Shown in pieces: positions 21,859 to 54,826 of a stretch of DNA of 64,000 nucleotides (positions within the stretch are counted from its first letter, which is position 1; each line of letters starts with the position of its first letter). The position numbers were made by a program, and so were the translations under genes. The DNA comes from a virus: IMG/VR virus record IMGVR_UViG_3300027905_000001, positions 1-64,000 of that record. One strand, given 5' to 3'. The notes beneath the pieces were generated by a model. The model saw nothing but the letters and a program-made list of their open reading frames with translations, was not told the DNA's origin and ran no database searches.

Positions 21859-21971
21859 GATTTGCAGATGGCACCGGCCAGCACCCGGTGTAATGCACTA
21901 GCAGGCGTCCAAAGTCGCCGCAAATGCATCCCGACAGCTCGCAAGGAACGGGGAAAAGGAGGTCAGGACAG

Positions 21972-22418
21972 ATGCTCTATCACAGATTTACTAACTCATC
22001 AAACGTAATGTCCAACTGGGGTCACGCAATGTTTGCGGCCAACAGGGACGCGGTCGAAAATTACGGTAGTAAAGAGTTTATCTTTAAATCATCTAGGGAC
22101 AATAGCAAAACGATCAAGTCGCTCAAATCACTGATTATCAAAACTTGGAAGTACGATCAAAAAAATGGCTTTACCGGGGACTTTGGCAACGGCTGCACAG
22201 ATGATTACTACTACAACGTCAAGGATAATGCAGTGGACGCTATTAGTATTTACAACAGCTTTGACCCGTCTAGCGTTGTGGAGAGCGCCGATGCTTGGGA
22301 CTCCGAGCTTTATCAATGGTTTTGGGAGCGTATCGCGGAGCCTAACGGCATTATGGCAGTTACAACTCAAGATGGGGCAATAGTATTTGATGCAGACTTA
22401 ATTAAGGAGGTATGTTAA
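21972..22418 (+). CDS. Hypothetical protein (148 aa; track start 21924)
   Basis: GGAAAAGGAGG RBS before ATG 21972. Confidence 0.55.
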   Translation: MLYHRFTNSSNVMSNWGHAMFAANRDAVENYGSKEFIFKSSRDNSKTIKSLKSLIIKTWKYDQKNGFTGDFGNGCTDDYYYNVKDNAVDAISIYNSFDPSSVVESADAWDSELYQWFWERIAEPNGIMAVTTQDGAIVFDADLIKEVC

Positions 22419-22679
22419 ATGTCTAATGAGGATGACGTTATGTTTTTCAAAATAGCAAAGGTTAAAGCCGCTATCAGCAGGGTCCTAGACGGGTGCGTAA
22501 ACGAGTTGCCGGATATCCAGTTTGGATGGAGCGGATCAGTTATCGAGGTTTATTTATCCGGCGGTAATTATCAAGTCCGCAACCTTATCGAGTCCCATTT
22601 TGTAAATAGCAGGAGGTATAAAGGCGTTACAATTACAAACAACGACACCAAAAAGCGTATCAGCTTTATTTTAAATTAA
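22419..22679 (+). CDS. Hypothetical protein (86 aa)
   Basis: AAGGAGG RBS, start abuts upstream stop. Confidence 0.55.
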   Translation: MSNEDDVMFFKIAKVKAAISRVLDGCVNELPDIQFGWSGSVIEVYLSGGNYQVRNLIESHFVNSRRYKGVTITNNDTKKRISFILN

Positions 22680-22700
22680 GAAATTGAAGGAGTGTTAAAA

Positions 22701-22919
22701 ATGAAACGATTAGACATTTTTAAAAGCGAAGGTGGATACAGATTAGCATTGGGAATCTACAACGACAGCCCCGTAATTGACAAGTCTCCTTGGTTCGAAA
22801 CCAAGGAAGAGGCCGAAAAAGCAAGGCGCGAAGTCATAGAAGAAGATGAGCGAGAAGCCAAAATTGAGCAGTATATCCAAGATGGCAATATCGAGGCCCT
22901 CGAAAACATGGATAAGTAA
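22701..22919 (+). CDS. Hypothetical protein (72 aa; track start 22692 GTG)
   Basis: GAAGGAG RBS before ATG 22701; acidic C-terminus. Confidence 0.5.
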   Translation: MKRLDIFKSEGGYRLALGIYNDSPVIDKSPWFETKEEAEKARREVIEEDEREAKIEQYIQDGNIEALENMDK

Positions 22920-23013
22920 TTGCAGAGGATTAGGAGCCTAAAAACTCCTAATAATGCGCTAGGCAAGCGGTTCCAAGCCCGCGCCAATCGCAATTTTGAA
23001 AGGTGGAGCAATC

Positions 23014-26703: not shown

Positions 26704-27276
26704 CTATACGTATTTACTAAAATAAAGGTATCTTTGAAATAATGGCCCTAATATCTCCCACAATACTTCAAGCGCTTCTCTGTTAATCTTCCTTAACATT
26801 TCGTTTGTGATATAAACTCTACCAACAGAATGGCGCTCGTTAAACACAATCTCAATGTTCCTCCATGTCATGACTTCAAAGTATTTAGACCTAATAACGG
26901 TTTCCTGTTCCCTCGTTAATGCCTTCAGCGCTTCATCAATCTGCTCCATCTCAAGCGTCTTAAACCTCATCTTCGACCGATCCTCGTCAATCCAAGCCTC
27001 AACTAATTCCCTCGTAACCTCTCTGCGCCCTGCTATATGCTCGGTCGGCGAAGTTGTAGTTGTTGCGTGCGGCATACCGATAATTCTACTTACGCTGTTC
27101 TCGAATAACCATAGCTCTCCCGCGCTCAATGCTTGTTCCCATACCAGGATTCTCTGCATAGTTGTCACGACTTCTGCTTTATGTTTTTTATAGAGTTTCA
27201 AGCGTTCTTCGAGTATGTTTTGGGATTCTTTTATCATTGCTATGGTTATTACCTCCTCTCTACCGTTTTGCGCCAT
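26704..27276 (-). CDS. Sigma-70 region-4-like late transcription regulator (ArpU/RinA-like, tentative)
   Basis: C-terminal LTREQETVIRSKYFEVMTWRNIEIVFN...VGRVYITNEMLRKI resembles region 4 HTH; sits before the packaging module. Confidence 0.5.
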   Translation of the reverse strand: MAQNGREEVITIAMIKESQNILEERLKLYKKHKAEVVTTMQRILVWEQALSAGELWLFENSVSRIIGMPHATTTTSPTEHIAGRREVTRELVEAWIDEDRSKMRFKTLEMEQIDEALKALTREQETVIRSKYFEVMTWRNIEIVFNERHSVGRVYITNEMLRKINREALEVLWEILGPLFQRYLYFSKYV

Positions 27277-30706: not shown

Positions 30707-31219
30707 TTAAAAATCTCCATATAATTCAAGATAGTCTAAAACTACACCACCACACTGACAAACAACATTAAATCCATCAAACTCGCTAATTGGTATACTC
30801 TTCCTTCCTCCTGAGAGTGCATCATTCCAAAACCGCATGAGCTCATCTAGTTCCAGCCTGTAGATTTTATACTTGGTTGTCATTTCGATGAGTAGGAAGG
30901 ATGTTCCGCCTTGAGCCTGCCAATTCTTTAGAAATTCAATTTGATGTGGTTCGATGTTGGATAAAGGGAATCGTTTTTGATCGTGGCATTGTTTGGCATC
31001 AAAGGCGACAGGTGCTCGTCCTTTTACTACTCCAATGTAATCTATTGTTGATTTTTCGCTTGGATAAGCTGACGTAACTTTTCCTTTTGACCAAATAACT
31101 TTCCAAGGAACCCAAACTTTTTGGATAAGAGCATCACCTTTGGCTTGGTATTGCTCGTTGGCATGTTCGATAAGTTGCTCTAGCCCCTTACCCCTATTAG
31201 CGTATAGCGTATTACTCAC
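30707..31219 (-). CDS. recU: Holliday junction resolvase RecU-like
   Basis: 170 aa; STIDYIGVVKGRAPVAFDAKQC...FLLIEM matches RecU core. Confidence 0.65.
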   Translation of the reverse strand: MSNTLYANRGKGLEQLIEHANEQYQAKGDALIQKVWVPWKVIWSKGKVTSAYPSEKSTIDYIGVVKGRAPVAFDAKQCHDQKRFPLSNIEPHQIEFLKNWQAQGGTSFLLIEMTTKYKIYRLELDELMRFWNDALSGGRKSIPISEFDGFNVVCQCGGVVLDYLELYGDF

Positions 31220-31337
31220 TACTTAATTCCCATCCTCCGATCCGTCTTATCCGCCGTTTTCACCATCGCTATTGTCACAATGTAAATAATAATGGCAATT
31301 GTGGATATTGCGCCTGTCCAAAACCCTTGCCACCACA

Positions 31338-31778
31338 CTAGGAATCACCTCTTTCCATGTACAATAAGACAGCCTTGCAAATGGCTCCTGACGCCGTATC
31401 GGCTACCACCCAATCATATTCAATAGTGGCTTTATATACAGTTTCGTCGCCGATACCTGAATAATGTTGGAGATTAGTTGGATAGAAACGGTCAAATAGT
31501 TTCATGGCATCCTCAATACTTCTTGACCAATCTTTTAAGCCATGGACGATATGTTTCATTTCATCAATTTCGCTAGCCTCTATTTGCCTGTATCTTTCCT
31601 TCATGATTTCCGGATTCCTAAAGGCTCTCCACGGTTCCCTATCGTTGGGTTTTTGGAAAATGACATAAAGGTAATCACCTCTTTTTTCTTCCCAAATTGT
31701 CCAACTTAAGACTTTTGTTGCTATTAATAGATTTAGTTTCGTGCCGGGTTTTAAGGTTAAAATCTCATCTCTACTCAC
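31338..31778 (-). CDS. Hypothetical protein (146 aa)
   Basis: ORF track frame, operon context. Confidence 0.5.
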   Translation of the reverse strand: MSRDEILTLKPGTKLNLLIATKVLSWTIWEEKRGDYLYVIFQKPNDREPWRAFRNPEIMKERYRQIEASEIDEMKHIVHGLKDWSRSIEDAMKLFDRFYPTNLQHYSGIGDETVYKATIEYDWVVADTASGAICKAVLLYMERGDS

Positions 31779-31984
31779 TCAACATTCCCCCTCTTCGCCT
31801 TTTTCTTCTTATTCAAAATCTTCTCACATACCCAGCTCATACACTCGCCACATGATCCATTGCACGCTTCTTTCAGCGTTTCACAAACTAAGCCAGCTCC
31901 ATCTTCGCGAGGTGCAGATTCGGGGCATTGTAGGCACTTACACGGACTTCTTACGCGCAGCTTCGATTTAGCTATAGTGATCAA
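31775..31984 (-). CDS. Small Cys-rich protein (69 aa)
   Basis: CKCLQCPE...CNGSCGEC; coupled to neighbours. Confidence 0.4.
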   Translation of the reverse strand: MITIAKSKLRVRSPCKCLQCPESAPREDGAGLVCETLKEACNGSCGECMSWVCEKILNKKKKAKRGNVE

Positions 31985-32004
31985 TCCTTTCTGTTTGTCG
32001 AATT

Positions 32005-32208
32005 TTAGAAGGGTAGCTTAGGTAATTCCTCTAGTAATGGGTTTCTACCATAAACCCTTACCTCGCATTCATCGCAGAAGACAGGGTTTATTGGCATCCC
32101 CCTGCATCCGCATTGTTCACCTTTACAGCAAAATTCTGGTTCGTATTCGTCGTAGACTTCTATTTCTTTGTGGCATCCATCGCATTCGTAGATTTTCAAC
32201 CGAATCAC
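32005..32208 (-). CDS. Small zinc-ribbon protein (67 aa)
   Basis: CDGCHKE...CCKGEQCGC...CDEC. Confidence 0.45.
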   Translation of the reverse strand: MIRLKIYECDGCHKEIEVYDEYEPEFCCKGEQCGCRGMPINPVFCDECEVRVYGRNPLLEELPKLPF

Positions 32209-32216
32209 TCCTTTTG

Positions 32217-32735
32217 TTAATTGATATAATTTGACATTAATTTTGCCCCGGCTTCTTGTACGACCTTAACCGCTTGTTCAAGTTCTTTATATACTCCTAG
32301 CCCTATCTGTTTTCGATTAATCATTAAGTAGGCTCGCCATTTTTTGGATGATTTGCGCCAACTAACGCCCCTAAATCCTGAATTAGTTTTGCATTCTGCT
32401 TTTCTATTTTGCATGTTTACTGAATGAGTTACATTTCTAAGATTCCCTTTTGTATTATTTAATGTGTCATGGTCAACGTGATCTACCACTAAATCATCGG
32501 GGCAATTGGTTATTAATCGATGTAGGCGTTTTGGTTTCAATCCTTCGCTAATCGACACATTACTTATGGCATAAAACGAACTTGTCCCTTCAGACCAAAG
32601 AGCATGCCACTTTGCACCACCTTTTTGGGCTATCTCTAAATCCTCCCTATCAATTAAAGTTTCCATCACAGATCCATCTTCTCTATCTAAAAATATTGCC
32701 ACTTTATCCCCTCTAAATTCGAATCTGTTTTTCAT
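32217..32735 (-). CDS. HNH homing endonuclease with AP2-type DNA-binding domain
   Basis: HRLI...DHVDHDTLNNTKGNLR (HNH) and SGFRGVSWRKSSKKWRAYLMINRKQIGLGVYKELEQA (AP2-like). Confidence 0.75.
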   Translation of the reverse strand: MKNRFEFRGDKVAIFLDREDGSVMETLIDREDLEIAQKGGAKWHALWSEGTSSFYAISNVSISEGLKPKRLHRLITNCPDDLVVDHVDHDTLNNTKGNLRNVTHSVNMQNRKAECKTNSGFRGVSWRKSSKKWRAYLMINRKQIGLGVYKELEQAVKVVQEAGAKLMSNYIN

Positions 32736-32783
32736 ATTCTCACCTCCTTTTCTTATCTATATTATACCATAAGCTTACCTAAG

Positions 32784-32812
32784 TTGCACTAAGGTTAAGC
32801 ATGGTATATAAT
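32784..32812 (+). promoter_or_regulatory. Consensus sigma-A promoter (TTGCAC-17-TATAAT) with flanking inverted repeat TATACCAT/ATGGTATA
   Basis: -35 32784-32789, -10 32807-32812; IR arms at 32763-32770 and 32801-32808. Confidence 0.6.
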
Positions 32813-32830
32813 ATAATTCGAGGTGAGGAA

Positions 32831-32992
32831 ATGGGAGATTTAAAAAACAGGCAAAGATATACAACTTCCTTGGATAATGAGCTAGTGGAAAAGCTCAAAA
32901 AGTTATCAGAGAAGACGAAAATTGCCCAATCAAAGTTACTGGATGAAGCAATAGAATTAGTTCTTAAGAAATATGGGAAGCCTGATAAGTAA
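32831..32992 (+). CDS. Ribbon-helix-helix (CopG-like) DNA-binding protein, paralogue of 38993..39172
   Basis: GAGGTGAGGAA RBS then ATG 32831; RQRYTTSLDNELVEKLKKLSEKTKIAQSKLLDEAIELVLKKYG. Confidence 0.6.
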   Translation: MGDLKNRQRYTTSLDNELVEKLKKLSEKTKIAQSKLLDEAIELVLKKYGKPDK

Positions 32993-33031
32993 GGGTTTCC
33001 CTTCCTTTCTGGTATTTAATTAGAATGATTA

Positions 33032-33446
33032 TCAAAAAGGAATGTCATCATCTAAGGAAACTCCGTGACCAAATGAGCCTTTAGCCTCACTTGAGCTATT
33101 CGAGGATTCCGATAAGTTGCTATTCTTCGGGCTAAGGAATTCCACTTCGTCGGCAATCACGTCGTATGACCTTTTTTTTATTGCCATCCTTATCCGTGTA
33201 ATCACTAATCTGTAGCGACCCTGTGACAAGGGCCTTATTTCCTTTTGCTAATGCGTTTGCACATAGCTCTGCAAGCTGTTTAAAACATTTCACGTTAATA
33301 AAATCTGTCTCTTTCTCGCCTGCGGAATTCTTAAACCTTCGCCCGACCGCTAGTGTGAAGTTGGAAATAGCAACGCCCGAAGTTCCATAGCGTAACTCAC
33401 AATCCCTCGTTAAATTCCCTGACAAAATAATCTTATTCATGCTCAC
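33032..33446 (-). pseudogene. ssb: Single-stranded DNA-binding protein gene interrupted by a frame change in an A8 run (33172-33179)
   Basis: N-terminal OB-fold frame 33132..33446; C-terminal frame 33032..33229 ends in acidic tail DDDIPF; one fewer A restores a ~137-aa SSB. Confidence 0.75.
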
Positions 33447-33615
33447 TTACCTCTTTCTGCTCAATCTCGAACTTAGCCCATAACCACACAATGATATTTA
33501 ACAGATCATCCTTGGTTGTTCCGTTGTGAGTTACTAGGTCTAACTCGTTTTGCACAACTTTAATCTTTTGATATTCTTCTAGCTCATCCCAATTTGGATA
33601 TTTCATTTTTGGCAC
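33433..33615 (-). CDS. Hypothetical protein (60 aa)
   Basis: ORF track frame, coupled to ssb. Confidence 0.4.
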   Translation of the reverse strand: MPKMKYPNWDELEEYQKIKVVQNELDLVTHNGTTKDDLLNIIVWLWAKFEIEQKEVSEHE

Positions 33616-33627
33616 ATCCTCATCCTT

Positions 33628-34032
33628 TTAGATCAAGTATCCTTTTCCCTTGCAACATTCGCACACCTTCCATTGAGTACACATACCCAAGTCGATAAAC
33701 CAACCCTCAAGAACCTCGGTTACCTTTAGCCCCATGCCTTTGTCACCCACCTCTTTTGGCTGTTTCGAACAAGGACTTATATTGCTATCACACTCACATT
33801 CATCGCACTCTTCACAGGCAGTAACCATCGGCATCTTGTCCCACAATATGGATTCCGGCGTTGCTGTGCATTTTTGCTCACCAAGCATTTGCTTTATCGC
33901 TGGATTAAGATTAATTGACCAAAAAAGCATAGCCTTGTTATCCTCATCGTGCCTTAGTGGATGCTTGCCTAAGTAAATGTGAGTCGGTCCACCTTCGAAT
34001 TCGTTGATTATTCTTGGATTCATTTTAAACAC
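33628..34032 (-). CDS. Hypothetical Cys-rich protein (134 aa)
   Basis: CEECDECECD and CECCKGKGY clusters. Confidence 0.45.
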   Translation of the reverse strand: MFKMNPRIINEFEGGPTHIYLGKHPLRHDEDNKAMLFWSINLNPAIKQMLGEQKCTATPESILWDKMPMVTACEECDECECDSNISPCSKQPKEVGDKGMGLKVTEVLEGWFIDLGMCTQWKVCECCKGKGYLI

Positions 34033-34048
34033 ACATCCTCATTATTTT

Positions 34049-34744
34049 CTATTGTCCTATTGGTTCGCTTATTTTCTCGAATTCCAGTACATACACCCAC
34101 GGATTTAAGCCCCATCCGTAGCCTCGTTTTTTGTTTAAATTATCCCAAAGTTCACTAAATGCATCCCTGGCCGTGAGATCAAATTCGGCAACATCGTCAA
34201 ATTTTCCATCACCTATTTTGTCGTGAAAATCAATACAACCTTCGCTTCTTGCGTCTTCCTCAGTTATGATCTGCAACCTCTCGGCTCTAATATTTGTCAC
34301 CTTCAGGAATAACCTAGCGGCTTTGCGTGGCATATAGATCGATGGCCGCCAGTAGTTAAAATGCTCAGGGTTATCATCTGCCCTGTATACTATTGGGCAA
34401 CCTTCAAAATCGTCGATATCAAGTTTTCCAGTTACTACCCGATAGTCCATATCAAGCTGTGACCACGTTTCTCGAACCCAAAGGATATCTCCGACATCAC
34501 GGGGTATTTTGCAATAATGACTTACCCGCCCATTATCCGACTCCCAGCACACGCACCCCTCGTTTTTGGAATTTGTCGAACTCGTGATTCTGCCAATAAT
34601 ATGATAATTTTCAGGCGGTTGATATTTAACTACTCGCCTTGTTTGAGTTTTCCTCCCTTCCAGAATCGCATTAATGGACTCACTAGAAAAAATTATCGGC
34701 TTTTCTTTAATCATTTTTTGCTCCTTTCTAGGCCCTCTATCCAT
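34049..34744 (-). CDS. ASCH/PUA-like domain protein (tentative)
   Basis: 231 aa; EGRKTQTRR motif near N-terminus. Confidence 0.45.
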   Translation of the reverse strand: MDRGPRKEQKMIKEKPIIFSSESINAILEGRKTQTRRVVKYQPPENYHIIGRITSSTNSKNEGCVCWESDNGRVSHYCKIPRDVGDILWVRETWSQLDMDYRVVTGKLDIDDFEGCPIVYRADDNPEHFNYWRPSIYMPRKAARLFLKVTNIRAERLQIITEEDARSEGCIDFHDKIGDGKFDDVAEFDLTARDAFSELWDNLNKKRGYGWGLNPWVYVLEFEKISEPIGQ

Positions 34745-34830
34745 CTCGCCTTATAGTTTTGTACCTATTTTAATTTATCCAAGCCCTAGCACCACTCTAT
34801 GGCCCTCTCATAGGATTATGCTCACTCCCA

Positions 34831-35490
34831 TCATGCGCGGATTACTCGCAATAACATCTCCTCAAATTCAATCTCCCTCAGCTCTCGAAGCGACCTTATG
34901 TTATCTCCCACGACAACCCATGCTTGCTTTATTTTTTCTTCAAGGCCAAAGTTCTCGTCAATATTTGCCATGATTCTGTCCATGACTTCTTCCGTTTCCT
35001 CGACTTCTCGCGCGGTCCATGTTGGTTCTGGTTCGGCTAGGTCGCCAACATCATGATACAAATATGATTCATCCTCAACTTTTTCGTCGAAACATTCTGC
35101 TTCATATGTCCCGTAACATTCTGAAACTTCGCTTTGTGATGTTTTAGGTTCGACTTTACCAACTTCCGCACAATCATCCACCCCCTCACTCTCCAACGCC
35201 TCAGACACATCTTCTCGCTCTTCTACGGCAACCTCAGCCACTTCCTCCGCACTCTCTTTAACTTGCTCGATGACCACCTTTCTTATCTTGATCTTCGCGT
35301 TAGCCTCCAACCCTTTTTTAAGCAAATAAGCTACACTTGTGCTAACGTCATACTTTCGCGCTACGTCGATGGTTAGCCCAATCGCGTTAAACTGTTCTAT
35401 TGTTGTTATTTCTGCTCGCAATTTGTTTGCATTTTCAGATATTTTTGACATGTTCAGCCTCCTCATTCTTGTTATAGTTGCGTTTTCCAT
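34831..35490 (-). CDS. Hypothetical acidic protein (219 aa)
   Basis: ORF track frame; highly acidic middle region. Confidence 0.45.
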   Translation of the reverse strand: MENATITRMRRLNMSKISENANKLRAEITTIEQFNAIGLTIDVARKYDVSTSVAYLLKKGLEANAKIKIRKVVIEQVKESAEEVAEVAVEEREDVSEALESEGVDDCAEVGKVEPKTSQSEVSECYGTYEAECFDEKVEDESYLYHDVGDLAEPEPTWTAREVEETEEVMDRIMANIDENFGLEEKIKQAWVVVGDNIRSLRELREIEFEEMLLRVIRA

Positions 35491-37730: not shown

Positions 37731-38651
37731 CTAACTTCTTCCTCTGAGGATTTCGGAGAGTATGGGGTCCGTTTCCCAAGGTTTAGAATCTCCTTGATCG
37801 ATTGAATTGCTTCCAGTTTTGTTACCTCCCTTGGCTTTTAAGTTCTTGCCCCATTTAACACAATTTCCCAGCCACGTATTAATCTGTGATCTTGGTTTAC
37901 TTTTTACATCAAGCGGCTTATCTAGTTTGTCGAAAGACCAGTCCTTAATCGCTCCCAAGATATCTATGGTTGGGTATCGTTCTTGAAGCTCTCGGTACAT
38001 TTTCAATTCCTTCGCCCTGTCAATCGGATAATCCTTAACTTTTTCAAGTGTGCGAATTAGGTCTATTTCATCAGGCAGAAGAATGAGATCATTTTCTTTT
38101 CTTTCTTTTACTTCCTTTCCTTTACTATTCTCTTCTTTAGGGATTTCTGTAGGAAATAATCCATCTTCAAGAGGATTAATGTCTACATTAACTACAGATG
38201 GTAGGTTGTTACCGTCAACATAAACCATATTTACAGTAAAATTATCAGTTTGCTTAGGTGGAGAAATAAGTAGATATTCAGATATGAGCGTTATCTCTTT
38301 GCGTCTTTCTACAGATTTGAAGTATCTTTTTTGGATTCCTCCGCTAGTAAGTATTTCGTATTTTAGATACAAGGATGAATTGAAAAATTCCCACTTAATG
38401 CAATCAGAAACTATCTCGGTGATAATATTAATGTCTACATTAACCTTACTGGAGAGTAGTAATTGTTCGCGCTCTGTCCATTTATAGAAATATCCTTCCT
38501 TATATATTTTCATAAGAAGTTTGATTAAAACCGCAAATCCAGTGATCTTATGCTTTGCTTCAATAAGCAAAACTTTGTCGTCTTGGTCCATGTCAATATC
38601 GAGGGGAAAATAATCCAATCCCTCTTTTTGCGGTCTTGCCAAGTCATTCAC
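37731..38651 (-). CDS. Phage replisome organiser (DnaD-like, Lin1244/Lin1753-type N-terminal domain)
   Basis: 306 aa; N-terminal FPLDIDMDQDDKVLLIEAKHKITGFAVLIKLLMKIYKEGYFYKW. Confidence 0.65.
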   Translation of the reverse strand: MNDLARPQKEGLDYFPLDIDMDQDDKVLLIEAKHKITGFAVLIKLLMKIYKEGYFYKWTEREQLLLSSKVNVDINIITEIVSDCIKWEFFNSSLYLKYEILTSGGIQKRYFKSVERRKEITLISEYLLISPPKQTDNFTVNMVYVDGNNLPSVVNVDINPLEDGLFPTEIPKEENSKGKEVKERKENDLILLPDEIDLIRTLEKVKDYPIDRAKELKMYRELQERYPTIDILGAIKDWSFDKLDKPLDVKSKPRSQINTWLGNCVKWGKNLKAKGGNKTGSNSIDQGDSKPWETDPILSEILRGRS

Positions 38652-38862
38652 CTTCCACTAAAGAAAAAATATCATCATATGGAATATCAAGCTCCTCAGC
38701 TATCTTCTTGGCTGTAGCAGGACTAGGGTTGAATCTGCCCTTTTCGATTGCATAAATACTTTCCTTGGACACTCCAACCTTCTTGGCTAAATCTGCAATT
38801 GACACGCCTTTTCTTATCCTTAACTCCGCTAATTTAGCTCGGTCGGTTTTAATTTTTAACAC
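38644..38862 (-). CDS. XRE-family helix-turn-helix transcriptional regulator
   Basis: 72 aa; LRIRKGVSIADLAKKVGVSKESIYAIEKGRFNPS (Cro/CI-type HTH). Confidence 0.75.
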   Translation of the reverse strand: MLKIKTDRAKLAELRIRKGVSIADLAKKVGVSKESIYAIEKGRFNPSPATAKKIAEELDIPYDDIFSLVEGE

Positions 38863-38942
38863 TTACTTACCTCCGTTTCCTTAATCATCCTACTTATACA
38901 TTATAACATATACTTGTACAAGTAACAATCAATAGGTATAAA

Positions 38943-38979
38943 TTGAAATAACTTTGTGTAGACTGTATAATACAAAGTT
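38943..38979 (+). promoter_or_regulatory. Consensus sigma-A promoter (TTGAAA-17-TATAAT) bracketed by 8-bp inverted repeat AACTTTGT/ACAAAGTT
   Basis: -35 38943-38948, -10 38966-38971; IR arms 38950-38957 and 38972-38979 flank the -10. Confidence 0.6.
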
Positions 38980-38992
38980 GGGAGGAGATATT

Positions 38993-39172
38993 ATGACTGG
39001 CGAATTAAGAAATAGAGAACGTTTTGGCGCTGCTTATGATAAAGATTTACTGGCCGGATTACGCAAATTATCAAAAGATACACGAATTCCAGCCAGTAAG
39101 TTGATTGATGAGGCGTTAGAGGATTTATTGAAAAAATATGGAGTTGAGGTGAAGAGAGAAAGCCAGGAGTGA
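38993..39172 (+). CDS. Ribbon-helix-helix (CopG-like) DNA-binding protein, paralogue of 32831..32992
   Basis: GGGAGGAG RBS then ATG 38993; RERFGAAYDKDLLAGLRKLSKDTRIPASKLIDEALEDLLKKYG. Confidence 0.6.
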   Translation: MTGELRNRERFGAAYDKDLLAGLRKLSKDTRIPASKLIDEALEDLLKKYGVEVKRESQE

Positions 39173-39213
39173 TTCCCTGGCTATTTTTTTACTCCCAATA
39201 CATCTGACTTTTC

Positions 39214-41986: not shown

Positions 41987-42731
41987 TTAAAAAGGATAAA
42001 GTTCTAGTGGAATATTTCTTCCAGCCTCCGCGATTACAACAATTTTTCCTGTCAACTCTTCGATTTCTCTAACCATTCTTTCTGCGTTGGAATTGCTGTC
42101 TGATAAATGAAGTAGCACTATCTTCTTCACTTGCGACAAATCATTAGCTCGCAAAAACTCTTTGACATGCTCAAGTGAAAAATGGCTTTCGAGTAGTCGG
42201 TTTTTCATGCTTTGGGGGATGTAGCCAGCTTCAATGTTTGCGTCAAGGGTATCTTTGCAGTAGTTTGATTCTACAAGGATATAATTTAGTGAATTAAAAC
42301 GATTGCGAATATAGTAGGTATCCGTACAAAAAATAAGTTTTTCGCTGGTTGGTTTGTATTGAATTAGGTAGCCGAAAGGCTGATCGCAATCATGTTGAGT
42401 GTCGAACGGTAAAACGATGAAATCTCCAACTTGAAACTGTACGCCAGCGTCAACCATTTGTGTTCTGTGGCTCTGAGATATGCCTATTTGCTTGGCTGTT
42501 CCGGAAGAGGTATAAATATCTACACCCGCCTTAATAACGTCCTTTGCGCTTCGTGAATGGTCAAAGATGTTCGTGGGTTATTAGGCACCCACGGATACGA
42601 GATAGATTAAAATCTAGGGATTGTTGTATTTTTTTAAAAGAAACTCCACATTCAATTAAAAGAGAACCGGTGTCGCTTTCTAAAACATAGCCATTTGCCC
42701 TTGATGACGAACTGATAACCTTGAGGTGCAT
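41987..42731 (-). pseudogene. MBL-fold metallo-hydrolase gene with frame change inside the HxHxDH motif; 5' end overlaps the HNH gene 3' end
   Basis: N-terminal frame MHLKVISSSSRANGYVLESDTGSLLIECG...ITHEHL then stop; C-terminal frame FDHSRSAKDV... (41987..42457); removing one T at 42563-42565 gives THEHLDHS. Confidence 0.65.
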
Positions 42732-43300
42732 TGTACTTTCCCCTTTCTCTCTTTAAATCTCCAAATGAATCCTCCAGCTTGTTTCCTAGTTAATCCTGGT
42801 TTGTATTCTGTCTCGCTTGCAACTTGAAGAATGTTCCTTCCGCATACTCCAGTTAACCTAAAGGCCTCTTGAGCGTTGGGATATTCGGCTAGTAGCTCGC
42901 CATTTAGGTTGTATTGTTGAATGGCATTAGGTCTTATGAATTTGTTGTATTTATTCATTCCTTTTAGCATGTTTGGATGAATAGATATTGCATGGATAAC
43001 ATTTTCGCTCCCAGATACCCACTCTAGGTTTTCAACCTTGTTGTTTTGCTTATTGCCATCCTTGTGATTTATCTGAGGCTTATTATTGACGTTGGCTATA
43101 AAAGCTTCAGCAACAAGTTTGTGAATTCTCGCATACCTTACACGTCCTTTATGAGTAAGGACTACGGAAAGATAATCCTTTTTACTGTTTTTATTAGACA
43201 AGATAAACCCTTCCCTTAATTTCTTGAAGCTTTTCAACCTACCCTTGGTTGATATTTGATATACACCCTCAAATCCCTCAATATCTTTCCATAGTTCCAA
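42680..43300 (-). CDS. HNH homing endonuclease with NUMOD4-type N-terminus
   Basis: WKDIEGFEGVYQIS...GRL (NUMOD4-like) and HKDGNKQNNKVENLEW (HNH). Confidence 0.75.
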   Translation of the reverse strand: MELWKDIEGFEGVYQISTKGRLKSFKKLREGFILSNKNSKKDYLSVVLTHKGRVRYARIHKLVAEAFIANVNNKPQINHKDGNKQNNKVENLEWVSGSENVIHAISIHPNMLKGMNKYNKFIRPNAIQQYNLNGELLAEYPNAQEAFRLTGVCGRNILQVASETEYKPGLTRKQAGGFIWRFKERKGKVQCTSRLSVRHQGQMAMF

Positions 43301-52662: not shown

Positions 52663-52905
52663 TTAACGCAATGCGTCCAACACCGCCTCGGATTGGGCTT
52701 CCATTTCTACGTCTGGGAACAACTCGTTAACTGGAGTATCAAACAAGAAAGATAGCTTCAGCATTAACTTGCCACTAGGCGTTGCGTTGCCGTTCTCAAT
52801 ATACCTTATCATGGTCCCAGTAACTCCGACGGCAGCGCCTACTTTATCCTGTGTGCCATAGGCTCTTCTTAGTTGTTTGAATCTTTCTCGTTTATGTCTT
52901 GTCAT
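52663..52905 (-). CDS. Cro-like XRE-family HTH regulator (first gene of early operon)
   Basis: 80 aa; QDKVGAAVGVTGTMIRYIENGNATPS HTH; divergent from repressor gene. Confidence 0.7.
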   Translation of the reverse strand: MTRHKRERFKQLRRAYGTQDKVGAAVGVTGTMIRYIENGNATPSGKLMLKLSFLFDTPVNELFPDVEMEAQSEAVLDALR

Positions 52906-52985: not shown

Positions 52986-53345
52986 ATGGAAATGAGGAAA
53001 ATATTTATGATTATCGGTATGGGCAGTAGAATTAGAGTTCTTCGACTTGAACGAGGGTTAACACAGGACCAAATGGCATATAAACTGGACATGAATCGTG
53101 CGAATTTCTCACATTACGAAAGAGACACATCTTCCCCACCGTGCGAAGTTCTGGTCAAAATAGCTGATATTTTAAATACAACTACAGATTTCCTTCTTGG
53201 ACGCACAGATACTAATCCACCCGATGCTGCAACAATCAAACAACTACAAGGAATTAATGAATTACCGCAAGACAAGAGAAGATTTGTAATAAATATAATA
53301 AATTCGATTATTTCAGAAATAATCGAAGAGGCTAAGGAGGAATAG
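52986..53345 (+). CDS. CI-like XRE-family repressor (probable start at ATG 53007)
   Basis: N-terminal HTH (LERGLTQDQMAYKLDMNRANFSHYE); start of integrase gene follows immediately. Confidence 0.7.
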   Translation: MEMRKIFMIIGMGSRIRVLRLERGLTQDQMAYKLDMNRANFSHYERDTSSPPCEVLVKIADILNTTTDFLLGRTDTNPPDAATIKQLQGINELPQDKRRFVINIINSIISEIIEEAKEE

Positions 53346-53347
53346 GT

Positions 53348-54826
53348 ATGCATGGAATACTATACCTGCGCAAAAGCAGAGAAGATGAGCAATATGAAAA
53401 AAATACTGGCGAAGATGTTCTGCAAACCCATCGCGAACGTTTGGTTATGCTCTGTAAGTCGCGGGAAATTACCTTCGACGAACGCGCAGAGGTACGAAGC
53501 GGTGATACGATCGCAGGTCGGCCTAAATTTCAGAATATACTAGATACGGATCTCCCCTCTGGTCAATACTCTTGTATCATTGTTACTGAAATTTCTCGAC
53601 TTGGCAGAGGGGACATGGAGGATGCAGGAAGAATATACAAAACCATAATCCACAACGAGATTAAGATTGTCACGCCGAATAAAATATATGATCCGTTAAA
53701 CCCTTCCGATCTTCGCCAGCTAAGGTTCGAGCTATTCATGTCTCGGGAGGAATACGAAAGCATTAAGGAAAGACTATGGAATAATAGAAATTACCGGGCA
53801 ACACAAGGTTATGCCGGCAATTATATTGTCACGCTCGGTTTTCGCCAGTCCAGGGGGATAGTCGAGATAATCCCCGAAGAGGAAAAATTAGTGCTTGAAA
53901 TATTTACGATGCGCTCTGAAAATTACTCCTATCAAGAAATAGCGGATTACTTTAATTCCAGAAATTTAAAGACAAAACGCGGAACAAAGTATCATGAATC
54001 TACAATATATAAGATATTAAAAAATCCCAGGTATATAGGAGTGGCTAAGTGGCAAGGCAAGGAATATATAGCTAAGCACCCTGCGATAGTCTCATTGGAC
54101 CTATGGAACTCTGCGCAGGATATCAACGCTGAAAGACATCACAAGAGACGAGGGTCAAAAAACGATAACCCTTATCTAGTAGAGCTATACTGTCGAGAAT
54201 GCGGGCAAAGGATGTACGGGGAACGCTCTACCCCGCAAAGGGTAATAGATGGTGTTCGAAAGCTATATAAAAGCAGAGACATCTATATTTGTAGGGGCAG
54301 AAAAAGCATCCCTAAATGTTGGCACCACATAGGAGCCAGCGTTGTTCACTCGACCATCCTTGATGAGCTTGGGAAGATAATATCAGATCCGCAGATTTTT
54401 CTTGAGTTAGTCAACGAGAGAGAATCAAGACTTGGCGTCGATACTAATGGTTTATCAGATCAAGTGGATGAATTAAATAAGCAAGTCAAGGATAAAAACA
54501 TCCTTTTGGTAAAAATAGAGAACGATTATGAAAAAGGCGACCTATCCGCTTTGCTATATACTAAACACGTTGAAAAAATATCCAAAGAAATAGCATCTAT
54601 TGAAGGTAGGATAAAAAAAATTAAGGCCGATTTATTAAAATCAGCCATTAAGATTAGTCCTCCTATGGAATTACAATCAATTTTGAAAACATTCCTAAAT
54701 AACTGGAACGCCTATCCTAATAGTGACAAGAAGCTCATCATTAGATCATTTCTTCCCAGGGTTGAGGTGAACAAGCAGGGTGAATTCTTTATCGCTATTA
54801 CTTTGCCTGATTCTATCGAAATTTAG
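53348..54826 (+). CDS. Large serine recombinase (prophage integrase)
   Basis: 492 aa; N-terminal resolvase-type catalytic region (YLRKSRED), recombinase domain, Cys-containing zinc ribbon, coiled-coil C-terminus. Confidence 0.85.
   Translation: MHGILYLRKSREDEQYEKNTGEDVLQTHRERLVMLCKSREITFDERAEVRSGDTIAGRPKFQNILDTDLPSGQYSCIIVTEISRLGRGDMEDAGRIYKTIIHNEIKIVTPNKIYDPLNPSDLRQLRFELFMSREEYESIKERLWNNRNYRATQGYAGNYIVTLGFRQSRGIVEIIPEEEKLVLEIFTMRSENYSYQEIADYFNSRNLKTKRGTKYHESTIYKILKNPRYIGVAKWQGKEYIAKHPAIVSLDLWNSAQDINAERHHKRRGSKNDNPYLVELYCRECGQRMYGERSTPQRVIDGVRKLYKSRDIYICRGRKSIPKCWHHIGASVVHSTILDELGKIISDPQIFLELVNERESRLGVDTNGLSDQVDELNKQVKDKNILLVKIENDYEKGDLSALLYTKHVEKISKEIASIEGRIKKIKADLLKSAIKISPPMELQSILKTFLNNWNAYPNSDKKLIIRSFLPRVEVNKQGEFFIAITLPDSIEI

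Follow-up and report, generated by a model that had tools for sequence, protein, structure and literature searches.

A ribbon-helix-helix gene with a shared-hexamer divergent promoter and a candidate operator beside an HNH endonuclease gene in a Desulfosporosinus prophage

We analysed a 64,000-nucleotide (nt) stretch of viral DNA (IMG/VR record IMGVR_UViG_3300027905_000001, positions 1 to 64,000; hereafter the window) around a small ribbon-helix-helix (RHH) gene, RHH1, to which an earlier note made from the sequence alone had drawn attention. An identical RHH1 protein occurs on a record from 'Candidatus Desulfosporosinus infrequens', and the window is a Desulfosporosinus prophage. As the note described, RHH1 is reverse-oriented, on the plus strand within a leftward array, divergent from an HNH endonuclease gene and convergent on ssb (33032..33446, minus strand); the array consists of replication and recombination genes. 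Between RHH1 and the endonuclease gene lie a rightward promoter (P_R), a leftward promoter (P_L) and a candidate operator palindrome. The features of the locus are as follows.

32217..32735, minus strand: free-standing HNH endonuclease gene, the first gene after P_L (HNH_3, phrog_99, PADLOC 'homing endonuclease')
32761..32769, minus strand: extended -10 of P_L, TGGTATAAT, with TGnTATAAT in 12/12 lineages; it holds the left arm of the inverted repeat described in the earlier note
32773..32784, no strand assigned: candidate RHH1 operator GCTTACCTAAGT, 4/6 pairs, in the P_L spacer, abutting the -35 and 6 nt from the P_L -10
32784..32789, both strands: shared -35 hexamer, TTGCAC on the plus and GTGCAA on the minus strand
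32790..32799, plus strand: TAAG-G-TTAAG boxes in the P_R spacer, weak and only possible secondary RHH sites
32807..32812, plus strand: -10 box of P_R, TATAAT, recognized by sequence and conservation
32831..32992, plus strand: RHH1, an open reading frame (ORF) of 53 amino acids (aa) with a Shine-Dalgarno sequence GAGGTGAGG at 32820-28
32975..33001, plus strand: putative RHH1 terminator hairpin GGGAAGCCU...GGGUUUCCC, then UUCCUUUCU, overlapping the stop codon and followed by a U-rich stretch

The RHH1 protein (MGDLKNRQRYTTSLDNELVEKLKKLSEKTKIAQSKLLDEAIELVLKKYGKPDK; N-terminal part MGDLKNRQRYTTSLD) matches Pfam RHH_3 (PF12651) over residues 6-48 with 72.8 bits (cut-off 21.6; E=2.1e-20), which upholds the identification of a 53-aa RHH gene on the plus strand, and it falls in PHROG 3180, 'Arc-like repressor' (E=1.4e-16). 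A beta-strand is predicted, followed by helices at residues 16-29 and 33-48, the strand, helix, helix order of the RHH superfamily. Judged by these profile matches, RHH1 belongs to a family (RHH_3, PHROG 3180) that is known but has not been studied. A PDB sequence search (E<=10) returned noise only. Megablast of window positions 31000-35000 against 50,697 phage records gave no match, nor did tblastn with RHH1 at E<=1e-3; relaxed to E<=5, tblastn gave two weak matches, both informative. We considered RHH1 as a type II antitoxin and rejected this because there is no partner toxin gene, the neighbours being the divergent HNH gene and the convergent ssb. Its Antitox_RHH match (21.9 bits) is under the 27.2 cut-off, an NCBIfam scan of the RHH proteins gave only sub-threshold RelB-like (18.8 bits against a cut-off of 50) and aCcr1 matches, and PADLOC gave no defence-system match for RHH1 or for its paralogue RHH2, described below.

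The RHH1 transcript is predicted to end at the hairpin over its stop codon, about 30 nt short of the stop codon of ssb. The fold of 32960-33030 has an energy of -17.9 kcal/mol (z=-1.8), a terminator scan lists a stem at 32991-33003, and equivalent hairpins in the relatives L001, L010 and L014 reach z=-3.4 to -3.6. Given this conserved terminator, RHH1 is probably monocistronic.

P_R consists of TTGCAC, 17 nt and TATAAT, which agree with the consensus at 9/12 positions, and the spacing lies within the 16-18 base pairs (bp) of sigma-A promoters. P_L, which the earlier note did not notice, reads the same hexamer on the other strand (GTGCAA), followed by 17 nt and TGGTATAAT, and its -10 precedes the start codon of the nuclease gene (32735) by about 26 nt. 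From the -10 boxes, transcription is predicted to start near 32754 leftward and near 32819 rightward. Two -10 boxes thus stand around one -35, the kind of closeness between divergent promoters seen in the logic of Arc.

Relatives of the locus, designated here by L numbers, were gathered by protein searches and contig look-ups, and many of the contigs are short. Twelve distinct lineages (61-90% aa identity) align over a 56-nt block with zero gaps, and in 12/12 of them a -10 box stands 17 bp from the hexamer on either side, so that the spacing of P_L is invariant among relatives. The shared -35 is the self-complementary TTGCAA in 5/12 lineages. The P_R -10 in the 12 relatives is TATAAT, TACAAT, TATACT or TATGAT, with T, A and the final T invariant. 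The claim that RHH1 has its own sigma-A-type promoter is therefore supported, since 12/12 relatives retain the TTG, a spacing of 17 bp and, in the -10, T-A---T. The description of that promoter as perfect was too strong: TTGCAC (32784-89), the 17-nt spacer and TATAAT (32807-12) are all present, but the -35 matches TTGACA at only 3/6 positions, and for this reason a consensus scan does not return P_R.

The same alignment contains a second conserved element. In the 12 relatives the layout runs from the P_L -10 through 6 nt to a 12-bp palindrome, the shared -35, 17 nt and the P_R -10. The consensus of the palindrome in the RHH1 clade is (A)ACTTACGTAAGT(T), and in L039, L045 and L046 all 14 bp of it pair perfectly. 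Mean pairwise identity is 0.86 in the palindrome stretch, 0.70 over the whole RHH coding sequence and 0.48 at third codon positions. Promoter spacers normally have no specific sequence requirement. Given the contrast between 86% in the palindrome and 48% at third positions, selection on a protein-binding site appears to be the simplest reading of this element, and the contrast argues against simple co-conversion. The 24-nt block that holds the palindrome occurs once in the window, which suggests a locally acting regulator.

The right spacer is 71% identical among relatives, and the TAAG box consensus mTAAGnTTAAGyAT is kept in most of them. TAAG occurs at 32770, 32780 and 32790, in exactly 10-bp steps, and again at 32796, and most of these copies are kept in relatives. 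The boxes may be extra RHH subsites, or merely parts of the palindrome and the spacer. In L043 the upstream block is AAGTTACGCAACTT, against the clade consensus AACTTACGTAAGTT; C>G at position 3 and G>C at position 12 form a symmetric double change that preserves the palindrome (6/7 pairs), and the beta-strand of this protein is the same as in L041. A pattern scan of viral-contig DNA with TAAGCTTNCNTAAGTTGCA recovered two already known loci and two chance coding matches (L007, L008). With one mismatch allowed, CTTACSTAAG has 12 sites in the window against 5.9 expected, and 3/100 shuffles reach 12; as further operators the extra sites were rejected, none being in an obvious promoter region.

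The gene directly behind P_L is a nuclease gene in 14/14 distinct close-relative lineages. In the window, this gene carries the nuclease motif of a homing endonuclease gene: HNH_3 is matched with 27 bits (cut-off 24.8; E=3.5e-6) and the phrog_99 HNH family with E=5.5e-34. The neighbour had been described as a divergent HNH-AP2 gene; HNH and the divergence stand, and the AP2 match, at 25.3 bits, is under the Pfam gathering score of 33.3. DNA similarity between the window and its relatives is limited to 32741-~33010, reaching 33084 in L020, and thus stops at 32741, a few bases ahead of the nuclease start codon. The nucleases found at close and distant RHH_3 loci are listed here.

Window: HNH_3 with weak AP2 match
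L002: DUF4379 with HNH
L016, L038, L039, L045, L084: HNH_5
L046: HNH_2
L010, L083 and L001 (truncated): phrog_374-type HNH
L014, L020: phrog_2340 endonuclease
L041, L043: TnpB, with OrfB_IS605 and Cas12f-like TNB domains
L062 (distant RHH_3 locus): GIY-YIG with NUMOD3
Clostridium phage BG3P (distant RHH_3 locus): NUMOD3 with weak GIY-YIG match
L065 (distant RHH_3 locus): DUF559/Vsr-like nuclease
Bacillus phages LY4 and IEBH: TnpB in LY4; in IEBH an annotated COG0675 transposase, probably TnpB, by annotation only

The possibility that these neighbours are one family inherited with the RHH gene was rejected because Pfam and PHROG divide them into at least seven unrelated architectures. Sporadic presence and replacement, as with homing endonuclease genes, are seen at the P_L site. 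Streptococcus thermophilus phage CHPC1042 (L089) has an HNH gene at the RHH-adjacent site (1316-1989), and in phage SW1151 (L085, 1350-1564) about 450 bp of that gene are deleted between flanks that are 95-99.7% identical; the two look like endonuclease-plus and endonuclease-deleted alleles of one site. Either homing endonucleases and TnpB land preferentially at the spot behind P_L, or the cassette serves as their dedicated controller. Nuclease genes at boundaries of phage genetic exchange are the subject of one report (PMC10448857). Our literature searches found no paper linking RHH genes to homing endonucleases in phages.

The TnpB genes lie at 1323-2411 in L041, 1315-2403 in L043 and 1273-2391 in LY4 (L078), and the IEBH (L086) transposase gene at 782-1900. 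The TnpB proteins of L041, L043 and LY4 have HTH_OrfB_IS605, OrfB_IS605 and Cas12f-like TNB domains, and their genes stand directly behind the putatively RHH-controlled leftward promoter. The window also has a second free-standing endonuclease gene, at 42680-43300 on the minus strand (NUMOD4 and HNH_3, 206 aa), with no adjoining RHH gene.

A second RHH gene, RHH2, is 49% identical to RHH1 at the protein level. The earlier note had called it a paralogue with the same architecture, and the shared palindrome geometry agrees with this. Its locus contains the following features.

38644..38862, minus strand: 72-aa helix-turn-helix (HTH) gene of the HTH_3 family, first after the leftward promoter P_L2 and followed by Lin1244_N and IstB-like genes (Pfam; identical Logan contig)
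38900..38928, minus strand: P_L2, with TTGTTA (38928..38923), 17 nt and TGTTATAAT (38908..38900); from a promoter scan, 10/12 with TG
38912..38923, no strand assigned: candidate RHH2 operator, the perfect palindrome ACTTGTACAAGT, in the P_L2 spacer, adjoining the -35 and separated from the -10 by 6 nt
38993..39172, plus strand: RHH2, 59 aa (RHH_3, 60.1 bits, E=2e-16; phrog_3180)
39161..39182, no strand assigned: hairpin after RHH2 with T-rich tails on both strands (terminator scan; -22.7 kcal/mol, z=-3.8)

The P_L2/ACTTGTACAAGT block is kept in the RHH2 orthologues L074, L075, L077 and L047, and in L075, L077 and L047 the palindrome is at the same place, 6 nt from ATTATA. The orthologues are likewise reverse-oriented. 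Their first divergent gene is a 72-aa HTH_3 gene in L074, L077 and L047 and a 55-aa gene without a Pfam match in L075; no RHH2-type locus has a nuclease at this position. Replication genes come next where the contig is long enough (L074, L075). In the window, the HTH_3 gene behind P_L2 falls in PHROG transcriptional repressor and regulator families. RHH2 may have a second rightward promoter, TTGTAC (38914-38919), 17 nt and TATAAA (38937-38942; TATAAT in L075 and L077), the -35 of which lies inside ACTTGTACAAGT; it would be additional to the TTGAAA-17-TATAAT promoter that the scan found at 38943-38971.

A blind search for 12-bp palindromes upstream of every gathered RHH_3 locus returned, in many lineages, ACT-N6-AGT preceded by ATTATA and 6 nt. 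The palindrome in this position differs by clade: the RHH1 clade has ACTTACGTAAGT and the RHH2 clade ACTTGTACAAGT, Bacillus phage LY4 and the S. thermophilus phages have ACTACATGTAGT, and L062, L050 and Clostridium phage BG3P have ACTACTTGTAGT, ACTTCTATAAGT and AGTCATATGACT, respectively. L032 (ACTTCATGAAGT) and L025 (ACTGATATCAGT) have ACT-N6-AGT palindromes, but without the preceding ATTATA and 6 nt. The predicted beta-strand is RYT(N/T)S with ACTTACGTAAGT, RFG(A/V)A with ACTTGTACAAGT, and (K/T)(T/P)ISNA with ACTAC(A/T)TGTAGT, and LY4 and the S. thermophilus phages, from different host genera, have the same RKTISNA and the identical ACTACATGTAGT. We infer from this clade-wise co-variation, which is the main argument for it, that the RHH protein is the palindrome binder. 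The reverse RHH orientation is found also in Bacillus phages LY4 and IEBH, S. thermophilus phages CHPC1042 and SW1151, and Geobacillus virus E3; among the 61 genes of CHPC1042, the RHH gene alone runs opposite to the others.

Given these observations, we consider it reasonably probable that RHH1 binds the palindrome, represses P_L and regulates itself, in the manner of P22 Arc. The RHH1 cassette is a compact unit of about 270 bp, from 32741 to ~33010. In the proposed mechanism, P_R would give a short, single-gene RHH transcript ending at the stop-codon hairpin, and P_L would be directed leftward at the HNH nuclease gene and those that follow it. RHH1 dimers would occupy the candidate 12-14-bp site at 32773-32784, the centre of which (32778.5) falls about 24.5 bp upstream of the predicted start of P_L and about 40.5 bp upstream of that of P_R, and would block RNA polymerase at P_L. 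Given the position of the palindrome in the P_L spacer, the main predicted target is the nuclease promoter and not the RHH gene alone. Because the polymerase footprints and the -35 overlap, binding would also set the expression of RHH1 itself; the response of P_R could be repression or stimulation, as the position at -41 and the weak -35 would also fit activation. Autoregulation through the conserved palindrome at 32773-32784, rather than through the repeat proposed earlier, is plausible.

The nuclease and downstream genes may then be expressed from P_L only at low RHH1 levels, as shortly after infection, or where transcripts reading through leftward from the upstream operon disturb the RHH gene; in a lysogen P_L would stay silent. 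RHH1 and RHH2 are oriented with the lysogeny genes and opposite to the lytic genes, and this orientation in the window prophage suggests that an internal promoter which would otherwise be constitutive is kept silent in the lysogen. In CHPC1042, no integrase or CI-type repressor gene is annotated, and thus a timing role during lytic growth would have to exist too. RHH2 is a diverged copy of the device, with the candidate operator centre GTAC as against ACGT, and would control the promoter in front of the small HTH gene and of the replication-type genes that come next. The last gene of the leftward unit behind P_L is a PHROG 36 'transcriptional regulator' (26704..27276), and in CHPC1042 a 'transcriptional activator' gene comes after the RHH-adjacent unit; we speculate that the RHH device gates a later step of the phage programme.

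Several observations weigh against this mechanism. The window's own palindrome is degenerate (4/6 pairs), and the closest relatives, L014 and L020, are worse, with 3/7 pairs in the 14-mer; the site may be weak or differently read in the lineage of the window. The -35 of P_R is poor, and a general promoter scan found 39 sites in the region where 37 were expected, which is no excess. The AF2 model of RHH1 is of moderate confidence (pLDDT, the predicted local distance difference test, is 68) and is a monomer without the beta-strand. The relatives were found by homology and share ancestry, so that the clade counts are not independent, and at the RHH2 locus the adjacent HTH protein could bind the palindrome instead. 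Literature searches on RHH_3/PF12651 found no report of binding, transcripts or start sites for any member, and no paper on the function, operator or nuclease association of the family.

It is unlikely, in our view, that the palindrome is bound by another protein, such as a host factor, a CI-like repressor or, at the paralogue, the HTH neighbour, and that RHH1 acts elsewhere, on other phage or host genes, DNA replication or partition. The link between protein and site is an inferred one, the degenerate palindrome of the window would be compatible with this reading, and RHH proteins have been described as acting also in relaxosomes and partition systems. The palindrome, however, accompanies the RHH gene in widely differing phages and hosts and co-varies with the beta-strand by clade, there is no adjacent HTH gene at RHH1-type loci, and, with the 24-nt block unique, no other target of the same sequence is visible in the window.

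We regard it as quite unlikely that RHH1 is instead a promoter-choice switch or activator, which would stimulate P_R as lambda CI does at P_RM while shutting P_L, and so form a bistable mini-switch. The palindrome centre about 40.5 bp upstream of the predicted P_R start would suit such a role, as would the contrast between the 3/6 -35 of P_R and the extended -10 of P_L, and the shared -35 forces the two promoters to compete. The starts on which that distance depends are only predicted, however, the conserved TAAG boxes in the P_R spacer fit repression equally well, and we know of no RHH_3 activator.

It is improbable that RHH1 binds the repeat that brackets its promoter and acts by simple self-repression, as had been proposed. 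The repeat itself was correctly described: TATACCAT (32763-70) is matched over all 8 bp by its inverted copy ATGGTATA (32801-08), which overlaps the P_R -10, and a repeat finder describes the region as a 20-nt imperfect palindrome about the shared hexamer, 75% complementary. As an operator it lacks support, since it is 8/8 only in the window and 4-6/8 in 11/11 other lineages, where compensatory changes are not seen (right arms are, for example, ATAATATA, ATGTTGTA and ATGCTGTA). The left arm is invariant because it is part of the extended -10 (TGGTATAAT) of the unnoticed divergent promoter. When the 95-nt intergenic region is dinucleotide-shuffled, 6.9% of the shuffles contain a perfect 8-bp repeat with a 3-40-nt gap, 128 inverted repeats of this kind occur in the window, and at RHH2 the corresponding repeat (AACTTTGT/ACAAAGTT) is lost in L074. 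Arms 30 bp apart are moreover an unusual spacing among known RHH operators, which counts against this model. What was called a flanking inverted repeat is, by sequence and conservation, two -10 boxes facing outward from a shared -35; the observation was largely correct and the operator assignment wrong.

Least probable of all is that the conservation of the cassette reflects homing-driven gene conversion or a recombination arm, with RHH1 a passenger or orphan antitoxin-like gene: a selfish nuclease gene adjoins the RHH gene in every close relative, DNA homology breaks exactly at that gene, as would suit the reported exchange boundaries, and the Antitox_RHH match exists under its cut-off, but co-conversion would homogenise third codon positions 50-200 bp away (48% identical, against 86% in the palindrome), conservation peaks at the promoter-defining bases, and RHH1 is monocistronic with convergent or divergent neighbours, no toxin partner and nothing above the PADLOC and NCBIfam cut-offs.

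The proposed repression of P_L by RHH1 resembles several described systems. Arc of phage P22 represses two divergent, overlapping promoters, Pant and Pmnt (PMC2724298). RHH1 has no detectable sequence relationship to Arc or Mnt and belongs to a different Pfam family, RHH_3, so that the relationship is at the level of the fold only; most probably RHH1 works like Arc without belonging to its sequence family. Arc is the first gene of the operon that it represses, whereas RHH1 is monocistronic and divergent from its presumed target. The Arc operator is a 21-bp site with two TAGA boxes, whereas the RHH1 candidate is a single 12-bp palindrome, ACT-N6-AGT, that lies within the promoter region, in the P_L spacer and abutting the -35, from where dual repression may be exerted. 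Unlike P22 immI, the RHH1 cassette has no antirepressor.

Reg576 of the Bacillus plasmid p576 is an autoregulated RHH repressor of establishment genes, for which a transient burst on entry into a new cell was proposed (PMC6294495). Both are RHH regulators from Firmicutes with self-regulation (predicted for RHH1), and in both the operator motifs (candidate ones for RHH1) abut the -35 or sit in the spacer of sigma-A promoters with an extended -10 (PMC6294495). Reg576, however, uses direct pairs of TTATCCC heptamers at four promoters, whereas RHH1 would use one palindrome at one locus; one is on a plasmid and the other in a phage, and there is no sequence match. In type V-K CRISPR-associated transposons (CASTs), Arc-like RHH proteins (Arc_1 and Arc_2, 53-72 aa) and CvkR regulators are encoded in reverse orientation upstream of cas12k (PMC9938897). 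The Arc-like genes and RHH1 are alike in being small and in lying upstream of, and reverse to, a mobile-element gene of a nuclease family, which is cas12k in the one case and TnpB, HNH or GIY-YIG in the other. The RHH families differ (the PHA01623 superfamily and RHH_5 in CASTs, RHH_3 here), as do the hosts, CASTs being cyanobacterial transposons and RHH1-type genes being from Firmicute phages, and the title of that paper calls only the MerR-type CvkR a repressor. RHH1 is a direct member of the PHROG 3180/PF12651 'Arc-like repressor' genes of Firmicute phages, which are annotated by homology only.

RHH1 alone is an ordinary small phage regulator. As far as could be found, no earlier description exists of this architecture, with its shared -35, spacer palindrome, two diverged copies in one prophage and constant nuclease neighbour. 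The analysis gives RHH_3/PHROG 3180 a testable operator rule, ACT-N6-AGT at 6 nt from the -10 of the divergent promoter, with natural specificity variants that include two orthogonal-looking copies in one prophage. The same cassette is present in culturable phages (S. thermophilus CHPC1042, B. cereus LY4 and IEBH), and the prediction is therefore directly testable despite the 'Candidatus' Desulfosporosinus host. The recurrent nuclease behind P_L suggests that homing endonucleases and TnpB have a dedicated transcriptional control, or that they land there by preference, neither of which we found described in the literature searched. Tentatively, an RHH_3 gene, its palindromic operator and a bidirectional promoter could act as a portable platform for the control of selfish nucleases in Firmicute phages. 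Any HNH, GIY-YIG, DUF559/Vsr-like or TnpB gene landing behind P_L would then gain a dedicated repressor, which would permit a short burst of nuclease on infection and silence afterwards or in the lysogen. Such a platform, if it exists, would be to phages what the Arc-like and CvkR regulators are to CASTs and would explain the repeated colonisation of this spot.

The wider gene order of the prophage includes the following features.

30707..31219: RecU, farther left than ssb (Pfam scan)
33032..33446, minus strand: ssb, split by a frame change at a T8/A8 run at 33172-33179 (Pfam SSB, E=4.6e-27, N-terminal ORF)
52663..52905, minus strand: Cro-like HTH gene, divergent from the CI-like gene, with two Rha-domain genes
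52986..53345, plus strand: CI-like HTH gene, preceding the serine recombinase gene
53348..54826, plus strand: serine recombinase

After the Rha genes, the leftward array contains methylases, replication-type genes and ssb, and the rest of it contains the small and large terminase, portal and capsid genes and a 948-aa gene without a significant family match. A Rfam scan of the whole window at gathering thresholds found nothing in 32-39 kb, and no tRNAs were found in the window.

The split ssb consists of a 104-aa N-terminal part with the SSB domain and a 65-aa ORF ending in the canonical DDDIPF, and rejoining them takes a +1 shift, or A7 in place of A8. In relatives ssb is intact (137-144 aa), and an independent Logan assembly has the same ssb sequence as the window. 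The split could mean that the prophage is decaying and has a true frameshift, that transcription slips at the run, or that both assemblies contain the same homopolymer error. A Logan contig of the same prophage (SRR6195974, L024), identical over 16.2 kb, starts at window position 32944, inside RHH1; this break may stem from differences between strains at the RHH/nuclease cassette in the sample. L080, a relative of the window's phage (69% identity in the 231-aa neighbour gene), has an intact ssb, followed by neither a reverse RHH gene nor a nuclease gene.

Three relatives with the RHH1 cassette encode, one to five genes upstream of ssb, proteins of 245-486 aa with weak or faint Sigma70_r2/r4 matches (L010, 7136-7873; L014, 2774-4234; L021, 1969-3192). 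If such phages bring a sigma factor of their own, promoter calls based on the host sigma-A consensus need care. Finally, two matches to the Twister-P5 ribozyme lie on the plus strand of the window, at 21863-21919 and 22921-22982 (39.7 and 44.1 bits; Rfam gathering score 37.6). They flank three small plus-strand ORFs (21924..22919) that lie in the plus-strand block between the early genes and the terminase genes.

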